Source: an uncultured Rivularia sp.
GTDB lineage: Bacteria; Cyanobacteriota; Cyanobacteriia; Cyanobacteriales; Nostocaceae
Length of the DNA stretch: 64,000 nt
Reading direction: 5' to 3'
NCBI GenBank assembly: GCA_963665115.1
Contig: OY762007.1
Coordinates: forward strand, 4,192,001 to 4,256,000
Part shown: piece after piece, positions 4,725 to 34,434 of the stretch
Layout: each line of letters starts with the position of its first letter
How positions within the stretch are numbered: the first letter of the stretch is position 1
Notes under the pieces: model-generated
What the model was told of the DNA's origin: nothing
The model's database searches: none
What the model saw: the letters and a program-made list of their open reading frames with translations, nothing else
Translations under genes and position numbers: made by a program

Positions 4725-6561
4725 ATAAATTTCTAATCTTGAAACACTTATAATCAGAAAAGTTTCAATCTTTTCAAGATAGCAGTTGCTTTAATCTTGC
4801 TTCTTAACTAACTATTCTTTTAATCCAAAAATCGATAAAAGTACTAATTGTAATATATAAATCAAGCTTTATTAAGTTGCTTATAATTTGCTTAATTAAA
4901 ATTGTAAATATTACAAACAAACATAATCTTTATCATGTTCGTTGAGAACAACTATGGATGTATATATAAATATTGAAGCTAAATTTAGGCTAATAATAAA
5001 AAAACAGGTCGAATAACCTGTTAATAACTACAAATATTACGCTTAGGTTAATTCATCTGTATAGTTAAACGTAATTTAGTTAATTCCAATTCTAATTCCA
5101 GGTTTCTTTTACGTAAAGCTGCTATTTCATCTTTCAATTTATCAATCCGATCAATTTCTTCAAAGGTTTGATTAAATGCTGTACGTCTATTTTCTAAGCT
5201 AAACCATCGCTGATAAGTCTTAGTATGCTCTTCCACTGTATGACCTAAATTATCAGCAGCAGCTTTAATCGGGACTCCTTGTAATTGTGCCCTAATAGCG
5301 CAAGCATGGCGTAAATCGTAAGGTACAAAGGGTATTTTTGTTGATGAGAAATATTTAGATATAACGCTAACTTTATCAGTGAGTTGTCTCTCCGAATTCC
5401 AAATAGAAAATGATTTTAATGCATCTATACCTTCAAAATCATTTTTTAAATTTAAAAGTTGAATCCACTCGGGTACGAAAGGAAAAACTTCTCTGTATCC
5501 AGTTTTATTTGATTCATGTACTTTAAAAGTATTGTAATTATTCTCGGATGACATTAACCAGTTTAAATCTGGATGATTAATTATTTCTCTAGGGCGTAAA
5601 CCGTAAATAGCTAATAGTTTATAGATAAACTTCATAGCTCTGTTTTTAGGAATAGTCTTACTACCATATCTAGATATTGTTTTTATTCTTTCATCAAACA
5701 ATGAGATTGATTTAGCTATCAGACTGTCGCTAGGTATATCTCTGTGTTTTGGCTTTTGCTTTAATTTTAAATTATTAAAACTAGCTTCAATTTGTAATTC
5801 CTGGCAAATATAATCAACAGCCCTAATTGTTTTATTCCGGGTATATGGTTCTTGTATAGATAATATTCTTTGCTTTAAAGTATCAGCGTTTATCATTTCA
5901 TCACCCATCAAAGCTTTATGAAATGAGTATCTTAAACTATGGAAAGTATGTTCGCTTTTTAAAGTTTTCTTTCTCTTGCTAAAGTATCTATCTTCTAATT
6001 GATTGTAAAATTCGTCATAAGTAATATTTTTATTTTTTAAAGCTTGTTGCCCTAAATATTTATCAGTCCACTGAAAAATGTGACGAGCGATTAACTTACC
6101 TAACTCACAAGCTTCTTCTTCAGCCGTCTTTAGCCCGTCAAAACTAGCTGGTATCCCCAGACTTATTTTATATTGCTTCTTGTCTTTAGCTTGCTTGTGA
6201 GTATCACCAGGTTTGAGTGGAAGTGTGGCGAGTAATTGTATTGCTCCTCCTGTAGCAGTCAAAGTAACCTTACACTTGCTAGCTTTTAGTCTTTGATTAA
6301 CTTCGATCAATTCCTCTTCAAATTTCATATCAAAATGTTTTTTTGTCATGTCTGAGATATTCTTCATACCTCTATAGGTTCCATCAGAAGTGCTAGGAAC
6401 TTCAAAGTCGCTAAAAACCTTGTCCTGTATGTCTTTCATAAATTTGCTTAAATATTGCTTAAAAATTGGAATGTTCTACTTGAACTAACATTATTTGAAA
6501 TAAGTTTATAGCAAACATTATAGACTTTTTAATGCTTTAAACAAACCATAGTTCCAAGGCA
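4716..6561. mobile_element. nifK excision element 1 (1837 bp excised), core direct repeat TCCAAGGCA
   Basis: TCCAAGGCA at 4716-4724 and 6553-6561. Recombination restores V-Q-G-S-Q-G-C in frame. Confidence 0.95.
5048..6439 (-). CDS. XisA/XisC-family tyrosine recombinase of nifK element 1
   Basis: YGLRPRE, YDLRHACAIR, LGHTVEEHTKTYQRWF and a C-terminal coiled coil. Confidence 0.93.
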   Translation of the reverse strand: MKDIQDKVFSDFEVPSTSDGTYRGMKNISDMTKKHFDMKFEEELIEVNQRLKASKCKVTLTATGGAIQLLATLPLKPGDTHKQAKDKKQYKISLGIPASFDGLKTAEEEACELGKLIARHIFQWTDKYLGQQALKNKNITYDEFYNQLEDRYFSKRKKTLKSEHTFHSLRYSFHKALMGDEMINADTLKQRILSIQEPYTRNKTIRAVDYICQELQIEASFNNLKLKQKPKHRDIPSDSLIAKSISLFDERIKTISRYGSKTIPKNRAMKFIYKLLAIYGLRPREIINHPDLNWLMSSENNYNTFKVHESNKTGYREVFPFVPEWIQLLNLKNDFEGIDALKSFSIWNSERQLTDKVSVISKYFSSTKIPFVPYDLRHACAIRAQLQGVPIKAAADNLGHTVEEHTKTYQRWFSLENRRTAFNQTFEEIDRIDKLKDEIAALRKRNLELELELTKLRLTIQMN

Positions 6562-6586
6562 GTCAAGGTTGTGTGGCTTACTTCCG
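6553..6586 (+). CDS. nifK: nifK segment 2, 34-bp micro-segment (QGSQGCVAYFR)
   Basis: CAA GGC AGT CAA GGT TGT GTG GCT TAC TTC CG supplies exactly the residues missing between segments 1 and 3. Confidence 0.95.
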
Positions 6587-8436
6587 ATTCAATTTAATAA
6601 TCTTTGAAATATTTAAAAATAAAACGTTGAGAAATCATATTTTGTTTCTCACTACTATTTCACTATAATTACTAGCTAGATAGACCTAATCTTCAATAGA
6701 AACAACAAACTTACTTGCAATTATTACACTATTTTTCACCTAACTATTAAATTTAACAAAATCATTGAAAATAGGAAGTATAATTAAAATTGTCTTTAAG
6801 TGAATTCAAAGAATAAATTAGTAGATTATAAATTATAGCAAGCAGTTTTTATGACCATCGAAAAAACAAAAAGTAGGCATTCTCAGCCTACTTTAAAAAA
6901 GGGTGTTAAGTTTGATAGCAAATAATCACATCATCTGAGAAAATTTAAATCTAGCTAATTCAGTTTCTAATTCAGCTATACGCTTTTTAAGACCTGTATT
7001 TTCCACTTCAAGTTCATTAAGTCTAGACATCTGATTAAAAGTTTGATTAAAAGCTTTTCTTCTATTCTCCAAACCGAACCATCTTTGATAAACTTTAGTA
7101 TGCATCTCTACAGAATGACCTAAGTTATCGGCTGCGGCTTTAATAGGTACTCCTTGCAGGTGTGCCCGAATAGCACAAGCGTGACGTAAATCATATGGAG
7201 AAAAAGAGATTCCGCAACTTTTAAAGCTACCTGCTATCTTATTTACTTTGCTAGATAATTCAATTGCAGTTCCCTTGCTAAAAGAATACTCTTTTAACAT
7301 ATGTAATCCTTTTTGATTTTTTACATCAAAAAGTTCAATCCATTCAGGTACAAACGGAAAAACTTCCCTGTATCCAGTTTTATTTGATTCATGTACTTTA
7401 AAAGTATTGTGTTCGTTTTCGGGAGATACAAGCCAATCCAGATCGGGATTATTCATCACTTCTCTAGGACGTAAACCATAAACAGCTAACAATGCATAAA
7501 CTGTTTTATACTTCAACCAATTATTTTCATATTTTTTTTGACCTTTGACTTTTTCATTAAAATGTTTTTCAAAAAAAAGTATTCCTGTTTCAATCTCTTT
7601 ATCGGTAGGTATCAATCTTTGTTGAGGTTTTGTTTTAGGTATCAAGTCTGATAAATTAGCTTTAATCCCTAATGAGTTAAGAATTATCTTACCCATAGTA
7701 ACCATTGTCCTTTTGGATGCATCATATGGTACTTTCTTAATTTTATCCCTAACTGAAAACTCTGTAATTACTTCACTCCCAGAAAAAACTGCTCTGTATC
7801 TTCTTTTGTAGCTAAGTAAAGTTCCTTCACTTTTGATAGTTCTTTTTCTCTCCGAAAAATATCTTTCCTCAAACTGTTCGTAAAACTCATCAAATGTTAT
7901 GGTCTTTTTCTTCTTCGCTTGAACTCCTAAATATTTATCATTCCAAATAAAAGTTTTACGAGCGATTAACTTTCCTAATTCCTGTGCTTCTTCTTCAGCA
8001 GTTTTTAAGCCATCGAAATTAGCTGGAATACCTAACGATATAGTGTACTGCTTTTTATCTTGACCTTTTGAATCAGTGTCACCGAGTTTCAATGGGAGAG
8101 TAGCCCGTAACTGAATAGTTCCACTCCTAGATTCTATGCTTACTTTTGTTTTACCAGCTTTCAATCGTTTATTAATTTCTGTTATTTCTTGCCCGAACTT
8201 GGCTTGTACGTGTTTACGAGTTTCACTCACGTGTCTTTTGAGTCCTAAATAACTACCGTCGGTAGTTGCTGGAGGTTCAAAGTCTTCAAAAACCTTTCCC
8301 TGTATATCTGCCATGTTTACACTAGATGTACACTAAAATATTTTCAGTTCGCTACAAACAAGTAAACAAACTTTCATTTGATCTCTGTAAACATTTTAGG
8401 TTTAATTAGACTTCTTACTCAAGTGGAATACTTCCG
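6579..8436. mobile_element. nifK excision element 2 (1850 bp excised), core direct repeat TACTTCCG
   Basis: TACTTCCG at 6579-6586 and 8429-8436 (extended GTGGnnTACTTCCG). Recombination restores AYFRSHLTRHF. Confidence 0.95.
6926..8314 (-). CDS. XisA/XisC-family tyrosine recombinase of nifK element 2
   Basis: YGLRPRE, YDLRHACAIR and LGHSVEMHTKVYQRWF. Confidence 0.93.
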   Translation of the reverse strand: MADIQGKVFEDFEPPATTDGSYLGLKRHVSETRKHVQAKFGQEITEINKRLKAGKTKVSIESRSGTIQLRATLPLKLGDTDSKGQDKKQYTISLGIPANFDGLKTAEEEAQELGKLIARKTFIWNDKYLGVQAKKKKTITFDEFYEQFEERYFSERKRTIKSEGTLLSYKRRYRAVFSGSEVITEFSVRDKIKKVPYDASKRTMVTMGKIILNSLGIKANLSDLIPKTKPQQRLIPTDKEIETGILFFEKHFNEKVKGQKKYENNWLKYKTVYALLAVYGLRPREVMNNPDLDWLVSPENEHNTFKVHESNKTGYREVFPFVPEWIELFDVKNQKGLHMLKEYSFSKGTAIELSSKVNKIAGSFKSCGISFSPYDLRHACAIRAHLQGVPIKAAADNLGHSVEMHTKVYQRWFGLENRRKAFNQTFNQMSRLNELEVENTGLKKRIAELETELARFKFSQMM

Positions 8437-9676
8437 TTCCCACTTAACCCGTCACTTCAAAGAGCCTTTCTCTGCTGTTTCTTCTTCAATGACTGAAGAT
8501 GCTGCGGTATTCGGTGGTTTGAAGAATATGATTGATGGTTTGACTAATGCTTACGAGCTTTACAAGCCTAAAATGATTGCCGTTTCCACTACCTGTATGG
8601 CTGAGGTAATTGGAGATGACTTGGGTTCATTTATCGGTAATACTAAAAATGAAGGTGGTATTCCTGAAGATTTACCCGTACCTTTCGCTCACACTCCTAG
8701 CTTCGTAGGTTCTCATATTACCGGCTACGATAATATGATGAAGGGTATTCTTCAAAACCTGACTCAAGGTAAGAAGAAAGATAAAACCAATGGCAAAATC
8801 AATATCATTCCTGGTTTTGATACCTACGTTGGCAACTTGCGCGAAGTTAAGCGTATTGCTAAGTTAATGGATATTGACTACACCTTGTTGGCTGACAACT
8901 CCGATTACGTTGATGCACCCAACGATGGTAAGTTCAATATGTACCCCAAAGGTACAAAATTGGAAGATGCTGCTGATTCTTGCAATGCTGAAGCTACACT
9001 TTGCTTGCAAGCACATTCTACTCCTAAGACTCGCGAGTTAATAGAGAAAGAGTGGAAGCAACCCACTTCAGTTATTCGCCCTTGGGGTATTCGCGGAACT
9101 GATGAGTTCTTAATGAAACTCAGCGAATTGACTGGTAAGCCCATTCCTCAAGAGTTAGAAGAAGAGCGCGGCCGTGCAGTTGACGCTATGACTGACTCTC
9201 ACGCTTGGTTACACGGAAAGAAATTTGCTATCTTCGGCGACCCCGATTTAGTATATGGTATGACCAGCTTCTTAATGGAATTAGGTGCAGAACCCGTTCA
9301 CGTTTTGGTTCACAACTCCAACGAGAAGTTCAAAACCGAAATCGAAGAGTTATGCTCTAGCAACGAATACGGTAAAGGTGCAACCTTCTGGCCTGGTAAA
9401 GACTTGTGGCATATGCGTTCTTTACTATTCACCGAGCCTGTAGACTTCATGATCGGTAACTCCTACGGTAAGTACTTGGAGCGCGATACCAAGACTCCTT
9501 TAATCAGAGTTGGTTATCCTATCATGGATCGTCACAATCTACACCGTTACTCTACCATTGGTTATGAAGGTACAATCAACCTAATTACCTGGGTTGTAAA
9601 CGCTATCTTTGAAGAAATCGATCGTAGCACCAACATTCCTTCTAAGACAGATATTTCCTTCGACTTAATTCGTTAG
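8429..9676 (+). CDS. nifK: Nitrogenase MoFe beta chain, segment 3
   Basis: YFRSHLTRHFKEP..TTCMAEVIGDD..SFDLIR. The rejoined gene encodes 511 aa after correcting one base. Confidence 0.97.
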   Translation, partial: YFRSHLTRHFKEPFSAVSSSMTEDAAVFGGLKNMIDGLTNAYELYKPKMIAVSTTCMAEVIGDDLGSFIGNTKNEGGIPEDLPVPFAHTPSFVGSHITGYDNMMKGILQNLTQGKKKDKTNGKINIIPGFDTYVGNLREVKRIAKLMDIDYTLLADNSDYVDAPNDGKFNMYPKGTKLEDAADSCNAEATLCLQAHSTPKTRELIEKEWKQPTSVIRPWGIRGTDEFLMKLSELTGKPIPQELEEERGRAVDAMTDSHAWLHGKKFAIFGDPDLVYGMTSFLMELGAEPVHVLVHNSNEKFKTEIEELCSSNEYGKGATFWPGKDLWHMRSLLFTEPVDFMIGNSYGKYLERDTKTPLIRVGYPIMDRHNLHRYSTIGYEGTINLITWVVNAIFEEIDRSTNIPSKTDISFDLIR

Positions 9677-9831
9677 AAATTAAGTTAACCCACGAATGTC
9701 GCTTGCCTTTTGAGAAAAAGGTAATGGTAATTAAGGATGAGGTATAAAGGCTCAAGTATGAAATAGTTGTATTTTTCATCCTTCATCCTTTATACTTCTG
9801 ACTTCCTTTTTTACCTTTTCCTTTTTTCAAA

Positions 9832-9876
9832 GGGCATTGGGCATTGGGCATTGGGCATTGGGAATTGGGCATTGGG
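9832..9876. repeat. STRR heptamer tandem repeat (GGGCATT)
   Basis: About 6 tandem copies. Confidence 0.85.
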
Positions 9877-10046
9877 AAAATACAAATATTAGTATAATCA
9901 GCTATTTAAGTATATTTTAGTTATTTTGAATTTATATAAAATTGATCGTACCAAAATATAGGATTATGTTTTATAAAATCATCTGAATTCAAATTAAAGC
10001 AGACTTTTTCAAATAAATAATTCATACTTTACTATTAGGCTTAAAA

Positions 10047-11441
10047 ATGAAAATCACTCAAAGCAAAATCAACGAACTGCTAACCGAACCAGGGTGCGAA
10101 CACAATCACGAAAAAAATGGAGAGAAGAAAAATAAAGCCTGCAAGCAACAAGCACAACCTGGAGCAGCCCAAGGAGGTTGTTCTTTTGATGGAGCAATGA
10201 TTGCTCTGGTTCCAATTACCGATGCTGCTCATTTGGTACACGGACCTATTGCTTGTGCTGGTAATTCTTGGGGTAGTCGCGGTAGCCTTTCTTCTGGCCC
10301 AATGCTTTACAAAACAGGCTTTACTACCGACTTGAACGAAAATGATGTTATCTTCGGTAGCGAGAAAAAGCTTTACAAGGCTATCCAACACGTACAACAG
10401 AATCATAATCCCGAAGCTATATTTGTTTATTCCACTTGTGTCACAGCTTTAACGGGTGAAGATATAGATGCAGTTTGCAAAGCTGCTGCAAAAAAAGTTG
10501 GTATTCCTGTTATTCCTGTCAACGCACCAGGTTTTATTGGTAGTAAAAATCTTGGAAATCGTCTGGCTGGAGAGACTTTATTAGACTATGTTGTCGGTAC
10601 TTCTGAACCGGAATACACCACTCCATACGATATTAATTTGATCGGCGAATACAACATCGCTGGCGAGATGTGGAATGTTACACCAGTATTAGAAAAATTA
10701 GGCGTTCGCGTCTTAAGTAAAATTACAGGTGATGCCCGTTATAAAGAAGTCTCTTATGCTCACCGTGCCAAGCTGAACGTAATGATTTGCTCCAAAGCCA
10801 TGATCAATATGGCGCGGAAAATGGAGGAGCGTTATGGAATTCCTTATATAGAAGAGTCTTTTTACGGTGTAGCTGATATGAACCGCTTTTTGAGAACTGT
10901 AGCAAGTAAGTTGGGAGATAAAGATTTACAGGAGCGGACTGAAAAATTAATTGCCGAAGAAACTGCAAAGTTAGATGAAAAATTAGCTCCCTATCGTGCC
11001 CGGTTGAAAGGCAAGCGCGTTGTACTTTATACCGGAGGCGTAAAGAGCTGGTCAATTATTTCTGCTGCAAAAGACTTGGGCATGGAAGTTGTTGCCACCA
11101 GTACAAAAAAAAGTACGGAAGAAGATAAAGCCAAAATTCAGAAGTTGCTGGGTAAAGACGGAATTACCATGTCCAAGGGCAACCCCCAGGAATTGATCCG
11201 AGTAATCGGTGAAACCAAAGCAGATATGCTGATTGCTGGCGGTAGAAATCAATACACTGCTCTCAAAGCAAGAATTCCTTTCCTCGACATCAACCAAGAA
11301 CGTCATCACGCTTATGCAGGCTATGACGGAATGGTAAATATGGCCCGAGAATTAGACGAAGCGCTCTACAGCCCAGTTTGGCAACAAATACGTCAGCCTG
11401 CTCCTTGGGAAATCAGTGAACAGTTAACAGTCAACAGTTAA
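10047..11441 (+). CDS. nifE: FeMo-cofactor scaffold NifE
   Basis: [23 protein letters not shown] and YTGGVKSWS; uninterrupted. Confidence 0.97.
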
Positions 11442-11537
11442 CAGTAATCAGTTACCAGTTACCAAGAATTTTTTTTAAAATTGATCGCAACCGATTTAGG
11501 AAATTGTGTTGAACTTTCGTAGTGGGAGCGTCTCGCT

Positions 11538-11720
11538 CCCTATTCCCCATATTTCCTATTTATTGTTTCCAATTGCCCATTCGTTATTCTTAATTCCTAA
11601 TTCCCAATCCCAATTTAAAATCTTTGACCTCTAACCCTATTCCCCATATTTCCTATTTATTGTTTCTAATTGCCCATTCGTTATTCTTAATTCCCAATTT
11701 AAAACCTTTAACCTCTAACC
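11538..11720. repeat. Tandem duplication of a ~85-97 bp unit in the nifE-nifN spacer
   Basis: ccctattccccatatttcctatttattgttt..cctctaa starts at about 11538 and again at about 11635. Confidence 0.8.
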
Positions 11721-11728
11721 TTTAAATT

Positions 11729-11848
11729 ATGGCTATTGTCGCAACTCAAAATAAACCAGTTATAGTCAATCCTCTCAAGCAAAGCCAAACCTTGGGTGCA
11801 ACTTTAGCCTTTCTAGGATTGAAAGGTATGATACCACTCGTCCACGGT
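11729..11848 (+). CDS. nifN: FeMo-cofactor scaffold NifN, 5' segment
   Basis: MAIVATQNKPVIVNPLKQSQTLGATLAFLGLKGMIPLVHG; not in the ORF track. Confidence 0.93.
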
Positions 11849-11962
11849 ATTCGAGGTTGACTTAAAACCCTAATATCTCGTAAACTGTTTGCCTCTAACT
11901 ATTTAGTTTAACTAATAGTTTAAGCTGAACATTTACAAGATTAGTCAATATTTAGTCAACAG

Positions 11963-13351
11963 ATGGATGATATACAGGGTAAAGTTTTTAACGATTTTGA
12001 ACCTACTTCTTATACAGACGGTAGCTACTTGGGGATGGTAAAACATAGCAAGGAATCTAAAAAACATTATGAAATGAAGTTTAAAGAAGAGTTAGTCAAA
12101 GTTAATCAGCGACTACGTTCTAGCAAAACTAAGGTAAGCATAGAATCGACTAAAGGGGCATTACAGCTTAGAGCTACATTGCCACTCAAGCCAGATGATA
12201 CTCATCCTCAAGGCAAATTGACTAAGCAATATAAAATAAGCTTGGGAATCCCCGCTAACTTTGAAGGCTTGAAAACTGCCGAGGAGGAAGCTTATGAATT
12301 AGGTAGATTGATTGCTCGTAAAATGTTTGTTTGGAATGACAAGTATTTAGGTACAAAAGCTGTTCAAAAAAACAATATTACTTTTGATAAATTTTGCGAA
12401 CAGTTAGAAGAAAGATTCTTTGAGAAAAGAAAACGTACTCTTAAAAGTGAAAATACATTTGATGGCTTCAAGTACCCTTTTAAAAAATATTTTTCTGGTA
12501 GTGAAATTATCACTATAGATGCAATAAAGAAAAGAGTACTTACCACGACACAGCCATATGTAAGGAAAAGGGCCATAGTTGCTGCTTGTTTTATATGCAA
12601 GCAATTAGACATCGAACATTCATTCAATGATCTAAAGTTGCCGCTCATTCCATCAAAAAGGAATATTCCTAGTGATGAGGAAATAAAGATATCTTTCAAA
12701 CTTTTTGATGAATACTTTACGGCATTACCTCTAAAAAGAGAACAAAGTGTTCAGAAAAATAAATTGCATAAAATAATTTATATATTAATGAGTGCATATG
12801 GATTAAGACCTAGAGAAATTTTAAATCAACCCGATATTGATTGGTTTGTATCAAAAAATAATGCTCAAAAAACTTTTAAAGTTCATGAGTCGAACAAAAC
12901 TGGCTATAGAGAGGTATTCCCTTTTATGCCTGAGTTATTGGATCTGGTTGATGTTAATTCTGACAGTGATTTGATTAATAGTTTAAGGAATGCTATTAAA
13001 TGGCAAGATATAAAGCTTTTAACCGCCAGAGTTACTGAAATAAGTAAATATTTTTCAAAAGTTGGGATACCATTTAAGCCTTACGATTTACGTCACGCTT
13101 GCGCTATTCGCGCACACCTGCAAGGAGTTCCGATTAAAGCCGCTGCTGACAATCTAGGACATTCGGTTGAAATGCACACAAAAGTTTATCAGCGGTGGTT
13201 TGGACTTGAAAACAGAAGAAAAGCTTTTGAACAAACGTTTGAAGACATAAACGAGATAGATAGATTGAGAGACGAACTAACGCGAGCTAAGCAAGAAATA
13301 GCCGATTTAAAGTTAAAATTAGCTAGGACTAAGTTAGAAAAGATGGTGTAA
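11963..13351 (+). CDS. XisA/XisC-family tyrosine recombinase of the nifN element
   Basis: YGLRPRE, YDLRHACAIR and LGHSVEMHTKVYQRWF. Confidence 0.93.
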   Translation: MDDIQGKVFNDFEPTSYTDGSYLGMVKHSKESKKHYEMKFKEELVKVNQRLRSSKTKVSIESTKGALQLRATLPLKPDDTHPQGKLTKQYKISLGIPANFEGLKTAEEEAYELGRLIARKMFVWNDKYLGTKAVQKNNITFDKFCEQLEERFFEKRKRTLKSENTFDGFKYPFKKYFSGSEIITIDAIKKRVLTTTQPYVRKRAIVAACFICKQLDIEHSFNDLKLPLIPSKRNIPSDEEIKISFKLFDEYFTALPLKREQSVQKNKLHKIIYILMSAYGLRPREILNQPDIDWFVSKNNAQKTFKVHESNKTGYREVFPFMPELLDLVDVNSDSDLINSLRNAIKWQDIKLLTARVTEISKYFSKVGIPFKPYDLRHACAIRAHLQGVPIKAAADNLGHSVEMHTKVYQRWFGLENRRKAFEQTFEDINEIDRLRDELTRAKQEIADLKLKLARTKLEKMV

Positions 13352-13381
13352 CTGCAACTCTAATCGCTATATAGCTATTTC

Positions 13382-13410
13382 AAAAGTAGGTGAAAAACAC
13401 CTATTTTTTT
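13382..13410 (+). terminator. Intrinsic terminator after the nifN-element recombinase
   Basis: taggtg-aaaaa-caccta followed by T7. Confidence 0.65.
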
Positions 13411-13728
13411 GTGCTTACAACGATTTTAATAGCTAAAACTGTATTTATTATAAGTAGTAAAAATAATAAGCACGTGGATATGTATCTATTATAAAAACTG
13501 CTCAGAATGAACTATTTTGATTGTTTTTATTTTCTAAAAAATAATTAATATAATATCTATTGTCAAATTAGTAAATAATCAGTAAACAAGTAATTAAATT
13601 AATTTACTGTTTTAACTGACGTTTATCTTTTTCAGGTGATGAAAATTAGTCAATTCTTAGTCAACAGTTAATAGCTGTATGCCAGAATGCTTGAAGCAGT
13701 AATATTTTAGCTATCCTTAGTTTCGCAC

Positions 13729-14925
13729 CACGGTTCACAAGGATGTACGGCTTTCGCTAAAGTTGTATTAGTACGCCATTTTCGAGAGGCGATTCCTCTT
13801 TCTACTACGGCAATGACGGAAGTATCTACTATTTTGGGTGGAGAGGATAATGTCGAGCAAGCAATTCTAACTTTGGTGGAAAAGGTAAATCCTGAAATTA
13901 TTGGTCTTTGTACTACGGGGCTGACGGAAACTAGGGGGGATGATATGGAACAAATCCTCAGAGATTTTCGTAAAAGTCATCCTCATTTGAACGAGTTACC
14001 GATTTTGTTAGTCTCTTCACCAGATTTTAAAGGAGCCTTGCAAGACGGATATGCTGCTGCTGTAGAAAGCATGGTTCGCGAACTTCCTCAAAAAGGTGAA
14101 ATTAAAGGTTCACAAGTTAATATCTTGATAAGTTCCGCTTTTACCCCAGGGGATTTACAGGAAGTCAAAGAAATTGTTAGTGCTTTTGGATTGACTCCTA
14201 TTCTTATACCCGATCTTTCCGCCTCATTAGATGGTCATCTAGACGATTCTTGGAGTCCGATAACGGGCGGTGGTACGACTTTGAAGCAACTGCGTGAAAT
14301 GGGCAGTTCGGCTTTTACTATTGCGATCGGCGAGAGTATGCGGGGTGCAGCGGAAATTTTAGATAAACGCTTTGCAATTCCTTACGAATTATTTACAGAG
14401 CTAACTGGATTAGATGCTGTAGATAACTTTTTACAAGCGCTATCAGATCTTAGTGGTGTTAGCGTTCCAGAAAAATATCGTCGGCAACGCCGTCAATTAC
14501 AAGACGCGATGCTCGATACTCACTTTTTCTTTGGTCGCAAGCGGGTATCCTTAGCTTTAGAACCCGATCAGCTTTACACAACGGCTAATTTTATGCAATC
14601 AATGGGAGCAGAAATTCAAGCCGCAGTCACCACTACACGTTCTCCTTTACTGGAAAAACTTCCTCTCGAAAAAGTTATCATTGGTGACTTAGAAGATTTT
14701 GAGCAAGTTGCCACGGGTTCTGACTTATTAATTGGTAACTCTAACGTTAAAACAGTTGCTCGCAAGTTAAATATTCCTCTTTATCGCCAAGGTATCCCCA
14801 TTTTTGACCGTTTAGGTATAGGTCAATTTAATAAAGTTGGCTATCGAGGAACTATGCAAATTTTGTTTGACATTGGCAACGTGTTTTTAGAGCAAGAGGA
14901 AATGAGTGTTAAACACGCTCATTAA
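13729..14925 (+). CDS. nifN: NifN, 3' segment
   Basis: HGSQGCTAFAKVVLVRHFREAIPLSTTAMTE in frame with ORF 13813..14925. The rejoined protein is 436 aa. Confidence 0.95.
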   Translation, partial: HGSQGCTAFAKVVLVRHFREAIPLSTTAMTEVSTILGGEDNVEQAILTLVEKVNPEIIGLCTTGLTETRGDDMEQILRDFRKSHPHLNELPILLVSSPDFKGALQDGYAAAVESMVRELPQKGEIKGSQVNILISSAFTPGDLQEVKEIVSAFGLTPILIPDLSASLDGHLDDSWSPITGGGTTLKQLREMGSSAFTIAIGESMRGAAEILDKRFAIPYELFTELTGLDAVDNFLQALSDLSGVSVPEKYRRQRRQLQDAMLDTHFFFGRKRVSLALEPDQLYTTANFMQSMGAEIQAAVTTTRSPLLEKLPLEKVIIGDLEDFEQVATGSDLLIGNSNVKTVARKLNIPLYRQGIPIFDRLGIGQFNKVGYRGTMQILFDIGNVFLEQEEMSVKHAH

Positions 14926-24418: not shown

Positions 24419-24442
24419 AGTTAGTTTTTGTATGAATTGAAT

Positions 24443-24582
24443 TTGGGGATTGGGGATTGGGGATTGGGGATTGGGGATTGGGGATTGGGAATTTGGGGAT
24501 TGGGGATTGGGGATTGAAGATTGGGGATTGGGGATTGGGAATTGGGGATTGGTAATCGGGGATTGGGGATTGGGGATTGGTA
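24443..24582. repeat. Long STRR array (GGGGATT/CCCCAAT)
   Basis: Roughly 18-19 tandem heptamers. Confidence 0.92.
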
Positions 24583-24674
24583 ATTGAAGATTAAGGATTG
24601 AGAATTAAGGATAGGGAGCAAGATGCTCCCACTACTCTCTATATCTCCCATGCCCAATGCCCTATGCCCAATCT

Positions 24675-25777
<1,103 letters not shown>

Positions 25778-26030
25778 AACGGGCGATTTGCTCAGAATGT
25801 TCGTAAATAACTTATTGATAAGGCTTTGATGATATTCGCTAACAGTTTTTTTCGAGCGTTTGAGCTTATAAATAAGGGAATATTTAGGGAAAAACATTAT
25901 GCCCTTCCGCCAGGAGAGGAGTGCCCGAAGGCGGGGTGAGGTTTCTATTTCATCTACCTATACAAAGAATCGTTTACCAATACATTTGCGAATTTGTACC
26001 ACTAAACACCACAGACGGTAGCTATAGGGA

Positions 26031-27347: not shown

Positions 27348-27512
27348 ATTAGTGGGTAAAGAAATTACCCACCAGATTTTCAGGGTTCTAATAGGTAATA
27401 ATGCGTTGGGTGTAGAGACGTAGCAGTGCTACGTCTCCTGACGTTTGAAAGAAGACAAACCACTTAAAATTAATGCAATCGACTAATAGTCTCAGTTAGT
27501 TTTTGGATTAAG

Positions 27513-28178
27513 CTAAACCGTTTCTGAAACTTGAGCGCTCAAAGTTTCGAGATTGATTCCGTAACGCTCAAACAAGTTACTCACAATAGTCTTATCAGTA
27601 TCAGCCAATCGGACTAAACCCCATAAAATATGTTCCGTCCCTATCGACTTTTTACTCTGAAGCCGAACAACCTGCAAAGCAAGCTCTAGAATAAACTTGC
27701 TCTGTGGATCGAGTTTCAAATTCTCGCCGGATTCAAAAGAATGTTCGTCAGTTGCAATATCTGATGTCGCGCCATTGGCTCGCAGTAATTGAGCCGAAGC
27801 TGTAGTTGGATCGGCTAATAATCCAGCTAGCAAATGTTCTGGCTTAACTTGCGAGTCCTCCAACTGTACTGCTTGATTTTGAGCAAACTTGATTGCATTA
27901 ATTGCCTTTTCTGTGAACCGCTCGAAACCAAAATCCAAACCAAAAAAATTTTTAACTCGTTCAATTAGTGTCTGCATAGAATTCTTTGCCTCATAAATAA
28001 AAACGTCTTCGATCGCGACATTAAACAAGCTGGCAATTTTAAAAGCCATTTCTAAACTGGGGTCAAACTTACCAGATTCAAATCCATTTACTGCTTGACG
28101 ACTTACTCCTAATTCTCTTGCCAGATCGGATTGCGATCGTTGGTGCAGTTGCCGAAGTTCCTTCAGTCGGTTTTTCAT
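27513..28178 (-). CDS. XRE-family HTH regulator fused to a Clp N-terminal repeat domain
   Basis: NRLKELR..SQSDLARELGVSRQ..PSLEMAFKIA, then FERFTEKA..PEHLLAGL..IGTEHILWGL. Confidence 0.88.
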   Translation of the reverse strand: MKNRLKELRQLHQRSQSDLARELGVSRQAVNGFESGKFDPSLEMAFKIASLFNVAIEDVFIYEAKNSMQTLIERVKNFFGLDFGFERFTEKAINAIKFAQNQAVQLEDSQVKPEHLLAGLLADPTTASAQLLRANGATSDIATDEHSFESGENLKLDPQSKFILELALQVVRLQSKKSIGTEHILWGLVRLADTDKTIVSNLFERYGINLETLSAQVSETV

Positions 28179-28195
28179 GGTTTTGCCCGTCCGCT

Positions 28196-28247
28196 GTCAA
28201 GTCATACTTTACAACTTTGTAAAACTAAATGTCAAGTATCACTTGAC
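28196..28247. promoter_or_regulatory. Paired palindromic operators upstream of the XRE-ClpN gene
   Basis: GTCAAGTCATACTTTAC at 28196-28212 and GTCAAGTATCACTTGAC at 28231-28247. Confidence 0.6.
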
Positions 28248-28380
28248 GTATGATTTGGATGCCGTTGCTGAAGGTGCTTTTTCAAAGGCAGTAAAATAAA
28301 AACCAGTATAATTTTTGCCCCCTTATAAAATTAAGACTTGACAATGAAAGTTGGTCATGGTTTTATTTACTCATGCAAAC

Positions 28381-28621
28381 GAATATCAACTCTAGATGTT
28401 CGTCTCAAGCGCACTATCTCTACTTTTTAGATTGATGCGTATTTAATATCTTGGTTTAGCGTTTATCCTAAATGAAAGATTTCATTTAAGGTAAATACTA
28501 GTTCAAAATATTGGCTATTCAATAGTTTAAAGCTTAGAAATAGTGCGCTTGAGACGGTTATCTATAGTTGGCAAGTATTTCCCTTGATAGCGGAGATACT
28601 TGCCAACTATGCCTGATATTC
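28381..28621 (+). ncRNA. Candidate structured RNA or leader (about 185-nt hairpin plus 19-bp hairpin)
   Basis: 17-bp perfect inverted repeat 28401-28417/28540-28556 inside a longer imperfect stem. Second stem 28564-28582/28592-28610. TTGACA at 28338. Confidence 0.55.
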
Positions 28622-28637
28622 CAATGCTATTAACGTA

Positions 28638-29123
28638 TTGGAAAAAAGGTTAAATTTGGAAATGGAATCTGAAGATATTTTATATGTTGAGCAGCGTTTA
28701 GATTATACCTTCAAAAATAAGGATTTACTCGTTCGGGCGCTAACTCGTAAAGCATTTGCACTAGAACAAATGCAACAGGGTAAAAATTGTAAAGATCAAG
28801 AAATTTACCGAATTCTTGGAGATGCTGTTTTAAAGGCAATCTTAGTTGAGATGCTGATTGAGAACGGTTTTGATAGCCGCAAGTCCATTACAAATGAGAA
28901 GATTGCTCTAGAAAAACGAGAAAATTTGGCAAAGATGTTTCAAGAGATTGGAATTGCATCATTTATTCGCTTGGGAAAAGGAGAGAAAAACCAAGAAATT
29001 TTTAAGCAATCTTCGGTTTTAGGAGAAACATTTGAAGCATTAGTTGCAGCAGTTCATGTTGATACCCAAAGCTATGAAACAACCAAAGGATTATTTATTA
29101 ATCTATTTCACAAAGCAGCATAA
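28638..29123 (+). CDS. Stand-alone RNase III catalytic domain (no dsRBD, divergent signature)
   Basis: LDYTFKNKDLLVRALTR, EIYRILGDAVL and LGETFEALVAAV. Confidence 0.85.
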   Translation: MEKRLNLEMESEDILYVEQRLDYTFKNKDLLVRALTRKAFALEQMQQGKNCKDQEIYRILGDAVLKAILVEMLIENGFDSRKSITNEKIALEKRENLAKMFQEIGIASFIRLGKGEKNQEIFKQSSVLGETFEALVAAVHVDTQSYETTKGLFINLFHKAA

Positions 29124-29369
29124 CAAGCTTGGTGCAATGGACTGACTCAGAACGTTAAGTCTTTTTTACAAGTGCGATCGCCTTCAAGGCAACGAAGGCG
29201 ATCGCATACAAGTAATTATCAGTAAAAAAATATTAATTGCGTCCTGAATCATCTGGTAATAATACGTACAATTTGGTAGAGAACATCTAATCAAATTTGT
29301 TCTTCCGTAAATTGTATTAGATCGACGTGTAGAAAATTTCTGTAAGCTGCCTGCGTAAAATAGATAATT

Positions 29370-30939
29370 ATGAAACTGTTAAAATTTTTATTTACTGTCC
29401 TCTGGGGTTTAGGCTACCTGGGGAATGCAATTTTATTTATCTCGATTGAATGGAGTTTTTTACAGCAAAGCTTTATTCAAATATTTAATCCACTTTTACA
29501 TTTACAAGTTTTTGGGATATTACTTACTGCTCACCTTTTTTGGGTATTTCTGACTATGGCAGTAGTGGGTTTCTTATGCTGTAAGTGTTATTGAAAGGCA
29601 TCAAGAGAGAACTGCCCAAAAAGCCGAATTTCATGCTAAAAAAACTGTATATCAATCACCTCAACGATTTCAAGAAACAAAACCCAGCACTTCATTACCT
29701 TCTCTAGGAAACGAGCAGACTGACTCATCTGTACCTCCAGAAACATTCTCGAAACCAGCAAGTAAAGTAGAAACTGAGTTAGTTTCTGAGCAAGTTAAAT
29801 TACTGGAATGGGCAATTCAAAGCAGTCAAAAAGTACAATTTATTTACGAAACACAACATGGTGAGAAGAGCGATCGCACCGTCACCCCGATTTCGTTTAA
29901 AACAGTTAAGCAAACTCAAAATCTATGCTTGGAAGGCTATTGTTATCTGAGAAATGCGAAAAGAAACTTCGCGATTAAGCGTATGCGGGATATCAAGATT
30001 ATTTCTGCAAGTCAAGCAAACTATGAAAAGGTGACTTCCCAAGAGGTAATAACACCACCCGAATTTGAGGTGAAAATAAGTCGTGCATCACAATCTCCGT
30101 CTCCTGAAGTTGCTCAAAAAAATAATTATCAACAGGTAACTTCTGATGAGGTGATAATACCACCTAATGTTGATGTCGAGGTGAAAGCAAGTCCTACATT
30201 ACAATCTCCGTTACCTCAAGTTTCCCAAACAAAGAATTATAATCGGGTGACTTCTGATGAGGTGATAACAACACCTAATGTTGATATCGAAGTGAAAGCA
30301 AGTCCTACATTACAGTATCCGTTACCTCAAGTTTCCCAAACAAAGAATACAAACAATCAAGTTAAGCAACGTTCTTATCTAAAATACCGTACTAATGAGC
30401 TTGAAACAATCGTTGATTCAAAATGGGATAATACAGAAGTTTTGAAGCAGATTCATTACGAGTTAGAGTTTCGTTCTCGAAAGAAAGCCCTCGCACTGCG
30501 TAAACGTATCGCAACCAGATTAATTCAATTGCAGGAAACAGAAACACAATTTAAATGGTCAAAAACAACAGCAAATCCTGGTTCGCAAAACTTATCAAAT
30601 GATGTTTTTAAATATGAGCAAGGGCTACTCAAATATTATGGATACAAAGTTGGTAGGAGTGGTTTATCACACAGAGAACGTTGGGAAATTCTCGATCGAG
30701 TCTTTTCGCAACCTTTATTAGAAATAGATAACGCTGCTTATTTAAATGAATGGGGTGAACCTAAAAGCGCTAAAAGATTGCAAAAAATTGTTGACTCTAT
30801 TGCTGCATTTACCCGCAATGCCAAAAGACGCAACAGACGTAGTTTTAGTAAAGCAATTCAAGATTGGGAAACTGATTTAGCGTATTTGAAGAGGAATTAT
30901 TACGATAATCGCTTTTCATTCGGATATCCGCGTACTTAG
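29370..30939 (+). CDS. Membrane-anchored WYL-domain protein with internal repeats (+1 frameshift at 29567-29569)
   Basis: Removing one G joins TM ORF 29370 to an open frame containing LEWAIQSSQKVQFIY..SDRTVTP..LEGYCYLRNAKRNFAIKRM. About three ~37-aa repeats (VTSDEVI..ASPTLQ). Confidence 0.75.
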
Positions 30940-31183
30940 TAAACAGCGTTCAATAATCAATTTGCACTACAATATCCAATTTCATTTGTAATTATAAAAA
31001 CTAAAATAATCAATTTTCCGTATTTATATAGAGAAAAGCTTAGCTTTTTCTTTTTTGCTAAAGAAAATTAATATACATCGCTTAAAAATTACCAACCCCA
31101 GACAAATTGGGTTATGATTTTGATTTATAAAAAAGCTTTTAATTAAAGCAATCTGCTGTATATGTTGATTATCAAGGTTTATC

Positions 31184-32005
31184 ATGAAATCTTCAGAGCT
31201 ATTAAAACGTTACGAGCAAGGTGAAAGGAACTTCTCAAAGCTTAATCTGGGCAGATTTATGCTTTATGAAGCCGATTTGAAAGGAATTAATTTTTCAGGT
31301 GCGAATCTTAGTTATGCAAACCTGGCTGGCTCAGACTTAAGCAATGCTGATTTATCAGGAGCTAATTTATGCGAGGCTAATTTGTGTGGTACCAACTTAG
31401 AAAATGCAAATTGCCAAGGTGCTAACTTCAGAAATGCGGAATTAACCTCTGAATATCATGGCATTAATACAAACTATTCCTACGCCGATTTTAGGGGAGA
31501 TGGATTAGATCAAGGCATAATCGAAAAATCAAATTTTACAGGTGCTAGTTTTATTGGTTCTTTTATATCACAGTATTCCTTTATAGATTGTGATTTCACT
31601 GCTGCTAATTTTAGTAATTCTCATTTAAGCGAAGTCAGTTTTGATAATTGTAATTTAACTAATGTAGATTTTTCGAGTGCTTCTTTAGGTTTCGGTTTTA
31701 GAAACTCGATACTAAATAACGTTTCTTTTAAAAAAGCTACTTTTGATATTTGCAACCCAAGATATTGTGATGAAATTGAAAAATGGAGCAATGTTGATTT
31801 TACCAGAACGGTTTTTTATTTTGGTCGTTATTCTAGTATTACAATTCCCAGAAGCGTTGACGCATCTCAAGTAATTGTAATCCGTGAGGGTTCAGATTTG
31901 AGTGGTTTAGATTTAAGCGAATGCAATCTGGAATATTTAGATTTGTCAGGAGTTAACTTAACGAATACAAATTTAACTAGAGCCAAATTACCGGAAGACT
32001 CCTGA
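31184..32005 (+). CDS. Pentapeptide repeat protein
   Basis: ELLKRYEQGERNF start and A(D/N)LSG repeats. Confidence 0.92.
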   Translation: MKSSELLKRYEQGERNFSKLNLGRFMLYEADLKGINFSGANLSYANLAGSDLSNADLSGANLCEANLCGTNLENANCQGANFRNAELTSEYHGINTNYSYADFRGDGLDQGIIEKSNFTGASFIGSFISQYSFIDCDFTAANFSNSHLSEVSFDNCNLTNVDFSSASLGFGFRNSILNNVSFKKATFDICNPRYCDEIEKWSNVDFTRTVFYFGRYSSITIPRSVDASQVIVIREGSDLSGLDLSECNLEYLDLSGVNLTNTNLTRAKLPEDS

Positions 32006-32122
32006 TTATTCTATGAACGTGATTTGTGGTAATACGATTCTTCCCTACGGTAGTATTTACAGTAATGTTGATTGATATATCAAAACTTGAAAAACTAGAT
32101 ATTAAAACTACCGCTAAAACCA

Positions 32123-32854
32123 ATGCCAACATTAATTCTAACTCCACGTTACAGCGAAGATTCTCAAATTCTGTGGCGGGTGGCTACTGGTTTGGGATGG
32201 GAAGTAGAAAGATTGGTAAATTGGCGATTATCCGATAAACTCATGTCAGCTTCCGAACCAGTTTTGTATCTGGAAGCTTTGATGGCTGAAGCTATTGCTC
32301 AACAACTTAAAATCCGTTTACTTAATCCATCAGATGACTGGTTAACTACTCTTCCTGAAGAATATCGAAAACGCCCTCATTATCTTACTACTCTGGGAAA
32401 AATTCGGTTAACGCCAATTACTGCTTTTATCAAACCACCGAATGATAAAAGTTTCCCGGCTCGCGTTTATTCTGCTACAGATTTACCAACTGACTACCCA
32501 GGTAATATGTCTGTATTAGTATCTGAGATTGTGGAATGGGATAAGGAATTTCGCTGTTTTATCTTAAATCGTTGCTTGAAAACTTTTTCTGTTTATCTTA
32601 GAGAAGGAAAATTGCAGTCGGAGAACAATTTTATTCATACTAGGGAAGAAGAATTTGAAGTTCGGAATTTTATTCATACTATATTATCTGATAACAGAGT
32701 AGAAATTCCCTCGGCGACAGTAATTGATGTAGGTATGATAAAAGGACGAGGTTGGGCTGTTGTTGAGCAAAATGCAGCTTGGGGAGCAGGTTTATACGGC
32801 TGCAATCCGATTCAAGTTTTGGAGGTACTTCGGCATACTGTTATCGAATTATAG
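32123..32854 (+). CDS. ATP-grasp domain protein (DUF4343-like)
   Basis: FIKPPNDKSF, EFRCFI and VIDVG..GWAVVEQNAAWGAGLYGC. Confidence 0.75.
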   Translation: MPTLILTPRYSEDSQILWRVATGLGWEVERLVNWRLSDKLMSASEPVLYLEALMAEAIAQQLKIRLLNPSDDWLTTLPEEYRKRPHYLTTLGKIRLTPITAFIKPPNDKSFPARVYSATDLPTDYPGNMSVLVSEIVEWDKEFRCFILNRCLKTFSVYLREGKLQSENNFIHTREEEFEVRNFIHTILSDNRVEIPSATVIDVGMIKGRGWAVVEQNAAWGAGLYGCNPIQVLEVLRHTVIEL

Positions 32855-33019
32855 TAGGTAGCTATCAAAACATAAATAATCTCATTTCAGTATTTATATA
32901 GAGAAAAACCCGGCTTTTTATTTCTATATAGAGAAAATAAATATACGTCACTCAGTAATTATTATTGAAATATAATTCTATAGACTTCTAACTCAAAGCC
33001 TCGTTGAGGAATATCCAAA

Positions 33020-33640
33020 ATGTCATCATTTATTGGTCATAGTTTGGCAGGATTGACTACCTATGCAGTAACTCAGCAGTTGCAAACCCATCGCCTTACT
33101 GAAAGTAGGCAATTTAATTGGATATGGCTATTTTGGCTGCTTGTAGTTGCTTCGATACCGGATATTGATTATCTAATTCGGGCACTAAGAATACAACAAG
33201 ATAATCAAACCATAAGAATTACTCACTCTTTTTTGGGGGCAATTCTGATGCCCGGTTGTACAATATTGGGGCTTTGGTTATTAGGTAAACGAGGAAAAAG
33301 TTTTAAATTTCAAAGTTTGCAGGTAATTTTAGTAGGTTTGTCTCATCTTTTGCTAGATATGCTAACTGGGGTTTCTGCGCTGCCATTGTTTTATCCATTC
33401 AGCTTGCAAGCCTTTAGGCTTCCTTTTGGAATACTACCTAGTGCTGGAAGAATTCGATTAACTAATTATTTTTTCTATCGAAACATATTTATAGAATTAG
33501 GTGTTTTGATTCCTTTATCTATAAGTTTACTGTTAAGTATTCGAGATTCAACAAAGTCGGGTAGTCGGCTATTGGTTATTGCAACTGGATTGGTGATTTC
33601 CGTTGGTTTTACAATTTGGGCGTTTTCTCTTAGTCGTTAA
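33020..33640 (+). CDS. Membrane metal-dependent hydrolase (YdjM/DUF457-like)
   Basis: GHSL, PDID, THS and SHLLLD motifs with TM segments. Confidence 0.85.
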   Translation: MSSFIGHSLAGLTTYAVTQQLQTHRLTESRQFNWIWLFWLLVVASIPDIDYLIRALRIQQDNQTIRITHSFLGAILMPGCTILGLWLLGKRGKSFKFQSLQVILVGLSHLLLDMLTGVSALPLFYPFSLQAFRLPFGILPSAGRIRLTNYFFYRNIFIELGVLIPLSISLLLSIRDSTKSGSRLLVIATGLVISVGFTIWAFSLSR

Positions 33641-33706
33641 AAGTTAGAAAAAATATGAGTGTTCGGTGAATTAACTCATCAAACCTGCTTATAAGTTGTA
33701 ATTCTC

Positions 33707-34147
33707 TTAATTAAGACTAAAACCTTTTGGTTCCGATAACCGAGCCATTTCAGAAAAACGCGAATACTTCACCATACCGTTATTAGAAGAATCTGCCGAC
33801 ACTGCAAGTAATCCAATATTTATATCCTCAAAATAAATTACCCCACCAATACGTCCGTCAACTTGAAAAGGTCCGTGAAAGAATTTGTATTTTGCAATTT
33901 TAATTAATAAAGAGTTCGTAATCTTTATTTTATTACCAAACATTTCCTGACAGGTTTTGCGGACAACAGTATCTAGATATTTGTTTTTAGCAGGATTTCC
34001 CAAATCTGTGAATTCCGGATGATCTGCAAAATGATCCATATAAAAGTCCCAGATTTTAGAAAGGTCTTTTTCTGAAGTTAGTATTTGCTTTAATTCCTCT
34101 AATCGTTCGATTTTCATGGTGGATAGGATGCGGCGAGCAGATGGCAC
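33707..34147 (-). CDS. Hypothetical protein
   Basis: 146-aa ORF; start may be ATG at 34117. Confidence 0.6.
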   Translation of the reverse strand: MPSARRILSTMKIERLEELKQILTSEKDLSKIWDFYMDHFADHPEFTDLGNPAKNKYLDTVVRKTCQEMFGNKIKITNSLLIKIAKYKFFHGPFQVDGRIGGVIYFEDINIGLLAVSADSSNNGMVKYSRFSEMARLSEPKGFSLN

Positions 34148-34257
34148 TATTAAAAATTTACCATAGTCATGTTATAGGGAAAATTTAGGTAACGATTTAT
34201 AAATTCAAATGACTGTTAATATCAAGTTCGTATTGAATCGCTTATGAATAAAAATAT

Positions 34258-34313
34258 GTTCGTAGTAGCGCTTTAGCGCATCTTATCGGATGCGCTAAAG
34301 CGCTACTACGAAC
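34258..34313. repeat. REP-like palindrome
   Basis: gttcgtagtagcgctttagcgcatc / gatgcgctaaagcgctactacgaac perfect arms. Confidence 0.85.
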
Positions 34314-34434
34314 CATTAATTATAAATCTTCTGATGATAAGGAATTACGGCGATCGCCTAATTTAAGGAAAACCCAGGGAATCATCATTGCTTTATGCTC
34401 AAACCCTTCATATACAAACAATTCAGCCAACTAT

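Follow-up and report, generated by a model that had tools for sequence, protein, structure and literature searches.

We analyzed a 64,000-nucleotide stretch of an uncultured Rivularia sp. (GenBank assembly GCA_963665115.1, contig OY762007.1, positions 4,192,001 to 4,256,000; hereafter the window) and found that the tyrosine-recombinase elements interrupting its nitrogen-fixation and hydrogenase genes carry tandem repeat pairs near both ends. These pairs are very probably arm-type sites, to which the recombinase of each element would bind through its N-terminal three-strand domain. The window comes from a heterocyst-forming cyanobacterium and contains the 3' end of nifD, nifK, nifE, nifN, and hupL. 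Four elements (nifK1, nifK2, nifN, and hupL) lie wholly inside it; a fifth, the XisA-type nifD element, has only one end inside, its far end being 29.85 kb upstream. The arm-site reading rests on covariation of the repeat letters with sheet residues 70, 91, and 61 of the recombinase, on the domain layout of the enzyme, and on the same architecture in tRNA-island integrases. A first-pass annotation of the window had proposed lambda-like arm-type sites and had held that they explain how 7–9-bp cores suffice; the evidence just named supports the first half of this proposal, whereas the second half did not survive, as described below.

All twelve tandem pairs that had been listed for the four elements were recovered in place (Table 1). 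Their 11-bp period is real: six-copy scores at lag 11 were 33, 29, 32, and 31 of 35 for nifK1, nifK2, nifN, and hupL, respectively, compared with shuffle means of 23 and maxima of 25–27, and none of 150 shuffles per element reached the observed value. At lags of 9, 10, 12, and 13 the score stayed at background (22–27). A search of the 8.7-Mb genome, both strands included, for exact tandems of the 7-mers at lag 11 gave three of TAGTCAA, all at element ends, three of TAAGCAA, two of them at nifK1, and one of TAGTGTA, at nifK2; thus 6 of the 7 exact nifN, nifK1, and nifK2 tandems are at element ends. There were no exact TAGGGAA tandems genome-wide because the hupL copies are imperfect. Read in the direction of the recombinase, the four motifs are variants of one unit, TA-R-K-N-W-A. 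It could be argued that the repeats are chance periodicity in AT-rich DNA or a ribosome-binding sequence beside the ATG, since the element ends are AT-rich and TAGGGA resembles a ribosome-binding site. This explanation is refuted by the shuffles, by the genome-wide rarity of the tandems, by the single lag and fixed positions over 135 elements, and by the fact that most types (TAGTCA, TAAGCA, and TAGTGT) are found again at the far end and are not rich in purines; we give it a negligible probability.

The spacing of the pairs required some correction. The first distal pair had been placed 55–63 bp from the core in all four elements, which fits nifK1, nifK2, and nifN (61, 62, and 63 bp) and misses hupL (53 bp). 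The proximal pair of the three minimal elements, said to abut the ATG, ends 2–3 bp before it. In hupL, the outer and inner distal pairs are 189 bp apart versus 75–81 bp in most elements, and a palindromic stretch between them (34259–34312) explains part of this unusual spacing. The nifD element end (core 4185–4195), which the first-pass annotation had omitted, carries a degenerate pair.

To place these elements in a wider set, 301, 41, and 121 genomes were searched, and 193 distinct recombinase open reading frames (ORFs) were recovered. Both ends were mapped for 136 of the 193 by means of empty sites in other loci, a DNA-based method that replaced an earlier protein-based junction finder (84 of 164 mapped). 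After removal of E091 (3-bp core, one vote), 135 elements were kept in 32 insertion-site classes, with three site classes split or moved by hand; the 57 unmapped loci were used solely for a loose look at proximal pairs. When lags of 6–22 were scanned over the 135 elements, one proximal peak (0.59) and two distal peaks (0.35 and 0.24) appeared; each of the three was at lag 11, and no other lag exceeded 0.13. On the proximal side, 87 of 135 elements have the TA of the unit at +93/94 from the overlap, and for the inner distal pair 114 of 135 have it at −78 to −81 from the crossover; the outer distal pair lies at about −158, mostly 75–81 bp beyond the inner one. A full element thus has six units, all in direct orientation. 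In 31 of 32 classes, the profile of the proximal pair gave its own far end a higher score than the ends of other classes (Wilcoxon p 9e-7, class level), and in 77 of 135 elements the own distal pairs were within the top 5% for the own proximal pair. The spacings of the outer pair (65–68, 75–81, and 88–91 bp) are suggestive of helical phasing (mean cosine 0.67 at 11 bp, with a weight of about five classes), and phasing across the core is weak (0.25–0.34). A weak conserved palindrome, AAA-n3-TT-n7-AA-n3-TTT (9 bits; for example, window 4741–4770), was also observed about 19–45 bp inside the distal ends; lying about 31 bp inside, between the crossover and the inner distal pair, it is a possible site for a bending protein.

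That motif and protein should covary across elements had been offered as a check on the proposal, and they do: letters 3, 4, and 5 of the repeat track residues 70, 61, and 91 of the recombinase. The pattern was first noticed by eye, and all protein columns were then scanned for mutual information, using 60 proteins below 85% identity out of 128 with at least four well-formed units. Among 462 columns, the top column was R70 for position 3, E61 for position 4, and T91 for position 5. Arg70 goes with G at position 3 in 82% of units, and Gln, Leu, Val, or Ile at residue 70 with A in 90–100%. At position 4, Glu61 goes with T (95%) and Lys or Leu61 with G (82–95%); at position 5, Lys or Asn91 goes with C (78–87%) and Asp or Gln91 with G (79–91%). 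The window elements fit these rules, with residues 61/70/91 being T/L/K with TAAGC in nifK1, E/R/T with TAGTG in nifK2, E/R/K with TAGTC in nifN, and K/R/D with TAGGG in hupL. Switches were also found within one insertion site: in the nifB-leader class, E030 has V70 and TAAG whereas E022 has R70 and TAG, and among nifH elements E066 (I70, TAAC) differs from E048.

Covariation of this kind could reflect shared ancestry or linkage, the repeats themselves being bound by a host protein or an excisionase; the set is dominated by related elements, and the core-binding-domain columns M207 and G362 are also high in raw mutual information. We therefore counted independent pairs on a tree built from residues 140–400, which exclude the N-terminal domain. 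The R70/G association ran in the same direction in 7.4 of 8 independent pairs and K91/C in 7.5 of 8, with none opposite in either case (p 0.008 each), and R70 and K91 were each the best of 130 columns tried in the tree-aware scan. To exclude linkage with adjacent coding DNA, the scan was repeated on distal units alone, located blind to class and to the proximal pair. Residues 70, 61, and 91 again ranked first of 462 for their letters, and R70 held in the tree test (p 0.016). Thus, far-end repeats that are unlinked to the N-terminal coding DNA agree with the proximal ones. Moreover, a single host protein would not read 14 motif types that track the element's enzyme, and the rules predict the repeats of integrases of about 28% identity in other families, as shown next. 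Taken together, these results make ancestry or linkage a very improbable explanation.

The covariation rules were set down beforehand and then tried on 30 relatives of the tRNA-Cys island integrase of this genome, which is about 28% identical to the window enzymes. Of these, 29 were aligned, 21 had a script-detected TA-led pair, and 20 were tallied, including one locus already seen beforehand (L176) and five in which one of several candidate pairs was chosen by hand. The position-3 rule held in 20 of 20 loci (19 Arg with TAG, one Val with TAA). The position-5 rule also held in 20 of 20 (7 Glu with G, 13 Arg or Lys with C), with the qualifications that Arg91 was absent from the pre-written list, which had Lys and Asn, and that the Glu91 group is probably one or two clades. 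At nine island far ends, the cognate pair lies at −78 to −83 (7 of 9) or −70 (2 of 9) from the anticodon-loop overlap, indicating that the geometry is shared across the family; two other loci of the far-end set gave an intact tRNA and a contig edge, and the distance between L220 and its own integrase is 1.25 Mb. A search with a tRNA-Met pattern gave no match. The island of this genome spans 126 kb (G000:C1 1,641,600–1,767,680), from the tRNA-Cys gene to a 50-bp copy of its 3' part, and a second look-alike integrase leader lies just beyond its far end.

The position of the proximal pair raises the question of whether the pairs are only operators for transcription of the recombinase, or relics of a lost integration function. 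In 121 of 135 elements, no more than 8 bp separate the proximal pair from a start codon, and the two are likewise close in tRNA islands. Pairs are degenerate at nifD elements whose gene still needs restoring, and the outer distal pair is mobile in hupL elements, with a free spacing of 75–189 bp. However, the inner distal pair is more than 1.5 kb from the start codon and nevertheless keeps its place from the crossover, in tRNA islands as well, and it still tracks the protein residues. We consider a role as operator or relic alone distinctly improbable.

The recombinases themselves have a layout consistent with arm binding. The catalytic motifs GLRPRE, KTG, YDLRHAxxIR, LGH, and HTKxY are present in all four window enzymes, and PF00589 matches them, two over the cut-off. 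In the AlphaFold model of the nifK2 recombinase, an N-terminal helix, strands at 58–63, 66–74, and 87–97, and a helix at 100–118 form the N-terminal domain (predicted local distance difference test score 93.8), which is followed by core-binding and catalytic domains and a long C-terminal helix. The best full-length Foldseek match was lambda integrase (1z1b, E 4e-5, 380 columns). In the Atlas comparison, the N-terminal domain was nearest to PF27551 XisAC_N (0.95), with the Arm-DNA-bind_2 and _5 clusters (PF12167 and PF17293) at 0.91. Residues 70, 61, and 91 are predicted to lie on strands 2, 1, and 3, respectively, of an arm-binding-type sheet, at alternating outward positions. In arm-binding domains, the sheet inserts this face into the major groove; contacts of the Arg-G, Gln-A, and acid-C kinds are common. 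The C-terminal helix (residues 402–461) has a basic stretch and heptad leucines and weakly matches coiled-coil peptides.

Several observations weigh against the arm-site reading. Most of the 135 elements come from the window's genus and, as kin, are not independent. Class E073 fails the cognate end-to-end test. Pairs are degenerate in the nifD element of the window and in two relatives, which means that not every element has all six units. In the tree-aware scan, E61 was only second for position 4, and with distal units alone the tree test for K91/C gave p 0.06. Among the held-out loci, 8 of 29 had no script-detected pair (three show fitting lag-12 pairs by eye), L191, which was excluded from the tally, has Arg91 yet G at position 5, and the lag of the island far-end repeats was 11 in five and 12 in four of the nine islands. 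The Glu61-to-T rule was met in only 3 of 8 held-out loci; having failed out of sample, the residue-61 rule was rejected as a general code. Finally, the isolated N-terminal domain gave no Pfam, PHROG, or PDB sequence match to an arm-binding family and no Foldseek match at E ≤ 0.001. Its alignments with 3jtz (Z 4.3, root mean square deviation 3.4, 61 aligned) and with residues 8–64 of 1z1b (Z 4.0, root mean square deviation 3.7, 56 aligned) were tied with unrelated folds (Z 4.0–4.3), among them ribosome hibernation factors. Because the isolated domain matches weakly and has neither a hidden Markov model match nor a Foldseek match, the modeled fold is consistent with an arm-binding domain and not decisive.

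The first-pass annotation had also given each element its own tandem motif. We found the motif to be cognate to the recombinase and not unique to the element: the 32 site classes use 14 motif types, TAGTCA occurs in 8 classes, and the nifN element shares it with the nifB-leader element of the same genome. In its strong form, the idea of a unique address per element holds that the pairs alone keep co-resident recombinases apart. In accordance with this idea, the four window elements have four different types, and for 6 of 8 elements of this genome the best-scoring far end is the own one. However, cross-scores between the nifN and nifB-leader elements were 32, compared with self-scores of 39 and 35, and the hupL pair scored 33 on coxA ends versus 22 on its own. 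A motif type is common to 22 of 338 co-resident pairs (6.5%) versus 5.7% across genomes, indicating no avoidance of shared types; selection for orthogonality among co-resident elements was therefore not found. The unique-address idea is thus largely refuted and remains improbable, and because types are shared among elements, arm sites cannot alone explain why 7–9-bp cores suffice.

Specificity for the target also appears to rest on core-type inverted repeats around a 7-bp overlap. In the 12 bp that flank the overlap there are element-specific inverted repeats, in which the inner arm of the element mirrors the neighboring host arm; their scores were 6.0 and 5.3 of 12, compared with 3.0–3.2 for non-cognate arms, in 14 classes, one with a register slip. 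In 14 of 32 classes the shortest shared core measured exactly 7 bp, and none of those kept had a shorter one.

The spacer that separates the crossover from the proximal pair contains two GTT-N7-AAC dyads, 31 bp apart (at about +36/+37 and +68 from the crossover), preceded by TTGAC-like and TAAAmT hexamers. These promoter-like hexamers are at conserved places, yet the region has 13 matches versus 16.7 in shuffles. At the dyads, GT-N9-AC accounts for 30 and TGT-N9-ACA for 17.7 of 32 class weights, and the canonical NtcA site GTA-N8-TAC is nearly absent (1.0 of 32). Genome-wide, 4 of 5 double dyad sites with the 31-bp spacing are at element ends. All 32 class representatives have GT-N9-AC, and none of 15 tRNA islands does. 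In the islands, the place of the dyads is taken by 10-bp periodic repeats, whose lag is the best one in 10 of the 15; these repeats may be excisionase sites that the dyads replaced in heterocyst elements. A passage of PMC2661322 lists xisA, second-hand, among the promoters with TGT-N9-ACA, described as a weak site for NtcA; the element dyads fit this pattern in part and may be the footprinted xisA sites. We put the chance that they are NtcA sites at slightly below even.

These data suggest the following model. As in lambda, a recombinase tetramer would hold the core-type sites through its core-binding and catalytic domains, and the N-terminal domains would bridge to the arm pairs, with a further protein bending the DNA in between. 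The role of the arms would be to license and organize synapsis by the cognate enzyme class, and that of the core-type sites to choose the target. More tentatively, the inner distal and proximal pairs would serve excision, the proximal pair would also damp expression of the recombinase, and a host regulator on the dyads, with NtcA as the lead candidate, would replace an excisionase. The minimal elements appear to encode none: 107 of 135 elements are at most 2.3 kb long and contain the recombinase and no other long ORF, and the remaining parts of the three minimal window elements have only ORFs of 27–38 amino acids (aa). Bivalent binding, a bent arm-core bridge, direction control, and autorepression are inferred by analogy with lambda, L5, and KplE1. 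Directionality and autorepression, both part of the first-pass proposal, are plausible on the precedent of PMC2951348; for autorepression through the proximal pair, we regard the odds as even. A broader possibility, to which we assign somewhat less than an even chance, is that heterocyst elements are domesticated island-integration modules that kept the arm sites and the 70/91 code and swapped the excisionase repeats for two NtcA-type dyads. If so, the nitrogen regulator would be both an architectural switch and a promoter guard, tying excision to heterocyst development, and arm specificity could be reprogrammed by two residues.

Table 1. Positions of recombinase-element features in the window (aa, amino acids)
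Element	Feature	Position	Strand	Remark
nifD	Proximal end	4077..4195	-	Core 4185-4195; dyads 4107-4119, 4139-4151; pair degenerate
nifK1	Distal 7-bp overlap GCCTTGG	4717..4723	-	Within 9-bp direct repeat 4716-4724
nifK1	Inner distal pair, TAAGCA type	4785..4806	-
nifK1	Outer distal pair	4876..4897	-	91 bp from inner pair
nifK1	Tyrosine recombinase, 463 aa	5048..6439	-	Residues T61/L70/K91
nifK1	Proximal pair	6443..6464	-	3 bp before ATG
nifK1	Two GTT-N7-AAC dyads	6473-6485, 6504-6516	-	TATAAT at 6517-6522
nifK1	Proximal overlap	6554..6560	-
nifK2	Distal overlap CGGAAGT	6580..6586	-
nifK2	Inner distal pair, TAGTG type	6647..6668	-
nifK2	Outer distal pair (weaker)	6724..6745	-
nifK2	Tyrosine recombinase, 462 aa	6926..8314	-	E61/R70/T91
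nifK2	Proximal pair	8317..8338	-	2 bp before ATG
nifK2	Dyads and promoter-like site	8347..8422	-	Dyads 8347-8359, imperfect 8380-8392; TTGAGT-18-TAAAAT 8422-8393
nifK2	Proximal overlap	8430..8436	-
nifN	Proximal overlap CCACGGT	11842..11848	+
nifN	Promoter-like TTGACT-18-TAAACT	11857-11886	+
nifN	Two GTT-N7-AAC dyads	11887-11899, 11918-11930	+
nifN	Proximal pair, TAGTCA type	11939..11960	+	2 bp before ATG
nifN	Tyrosine recombinase, 462 aa	11963..13351	+	E61/R70/K91
nifN	Outer distal pair	13566..13587	+
nifN	Inner distal pair	13644..13665	+
nifN	Distal overlap	13728..13734	+
hupL	Proximal 20-bp direct repeat	25758..25777	+
hupL	Proximal pair, TAGGGA type	25871..25892	+
hupL	Recombinase (XisC-type), 438 aa	26031..27347	+	K/R/D at positions equal to 61/70/91
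hupL	Outer distal pair	34172..34193	+	189 bp from inner pair
hupL	Inner distal pair	34361..34382	+
hupL	Distal 20-bp direct repeat	34435..34454	+

The ends of the elements are marked by direct repeats, namely TCCAAGGCA at 4716/6553 for nifK1, TACTTCCG at 6579/8429 for nifK2, CCACGGT at 11842/13728 for nifN, and a 20-mer at 25758/34435 for hupL. The register of the nifK1 overlap was picked among three by its inverted-repeat score, and 26 bp of nifK lie between the nifK1 and nifK2 crossovers. Removal of the elements at these repeats restored open frames of 436 aa in nifN and 531 aa in hupL; nifK was open over 511 aa once one extra base, which contigs of four runs lack, was omitted. Apparent frameshifts at window 2865 (xisA of the nifD element) and 4557 (nifK, first part) come from surplus bases in homopolymer runs; as contigs of near-identical runs do not have them, they are assembly errors and not pseudogenes. 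In the hupL recombinase, an N-terminal extension (PLNTTDGSYR; window 25893–26030) is out of frame with the 438-aa ORF, unlike in orthologues, which begin directly at the pair; this may be either real decay or an assembly error.

In one run, which comes from a near-identical genome, a contig connects the two parts of nifN across the element, with 1886 bp skipped and 7 letters shared, and this fixes the position of the crossover. It may represent excision or a strain without the element. The depth of the rejoined nifN (11841–13728, run X2) was 41.6 versus 61.6 for the element, in one of four runs; this is high for heterocysts alone, and an element-free strain or loss in vegetative cells is possible. 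No joined form of nifK1 or nifK2 was among the 15 of 26 joints listed, and contigs lose rare forms.

The nifK1 (4717) and nifN (11842) elements occupy paralogous GSQG codons of nifK and nifN. Class E035 (L049–L052) has the nifK1 position in the opposite orientation, and the enzymes of nifK1, nifN, and E035 cluster together (support 95). The paralogous insertion sites and grouped enzymes suggest that these elements shifted targets between paralogues. Beyond the window (G000:C1 ~4,129,640–4,132,050), non-coding DNA 254 bp upstream of nifB holds a recombinase element that has 8 members in the genus and would part nifB from its upstream control region until excised. From window 35262–36398 onward, a serine recombinase opens a further large element with primase-like and mobilization genes, apparently in hupS; no TA-led lag-11 pair was found upstream of this recombinase. 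A conserved XisA-like recombinase of 465–490 aa, which also occurs in non-heterocyst families (G000:C1 523,900–525,400; L023–L025 and L027–L031), had no clear arm pair upstream and no element ends were found for it; it may be a housekeeping member.

These results bear on old questions, namely how XisA and XisC choose the right 7–11-bp repeat, what restricts excision to heterocysts, and what allows as many as a dozen related enzymes to share a genome. They provide an att map with coordinates, comprising the overlap, core-type arms, three arm pairs, two host-factor dyads, and a promoter-like site, as well as residue-to-base rules for arm-binding domains that were previously only hinted at in the literature covered. 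The repeat letters would let one predict what each recombinase binds, and the repeats mark element ends and link heterocyst elements to cyanobacterial tRNA islands. Arm sites are already known in other systems; within the literature searched, mostly without subscription journals, we found no report of them for XisA or XisC, and this case is new to that extent.

The published heterocyst elements (PMC4874684) are the same elements, with the same enzymes and orientation rule and with matching hupL and nifD cores, and the recognition sequence of XisA and XisC given there is the terminal direct repeat only. The same holds for the passages available from PMC11249958, PMC8461463, PMC4284476, 10.1101/629832, and 10.64898/2025.12.09.693284. 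To the content of these papers, as far as those passages go, the present analysis adds arm sites, core-type inverted repeats, and residue-base rules.

The arm-binding integrases of the lambda Int type, as classified in passages of PMC8138268 that do not include XisA or XisC, likewise have three strands and a helix that precede the domains for core binding and catalysis, and accessory sites lie close to their crossover. Those passages tie arm-domain integrases to excisionases, whereas the minimal elements here hold a recombinase and no other long ORF. For KplE1 IntS, a section of PMC2951348 describes arm-type sites in the integrase promoter region and demonstrates negative autoregulation; the integrase gene starts beside att, as in the elements here. 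KplE1 uses TorI and IHF, whereas the spacer here holds GTT-N7-AAC dyads. A further parallel is with mycobacteriophages. In the portion of PMC3203893 available, attP in Cluster K, L5, and Giles has 11-bp repeat pairs on each side of the core, a feature common to both systems, and differences in repeat consensus among four phages were tentatively tied to two N-terminal residues. Compared with that candidate link, the covariation described here was tested over a tree and 60 proteins, and also with far ends that are unlinked and with integrases that had been held out, in elements whose six units are all direct.

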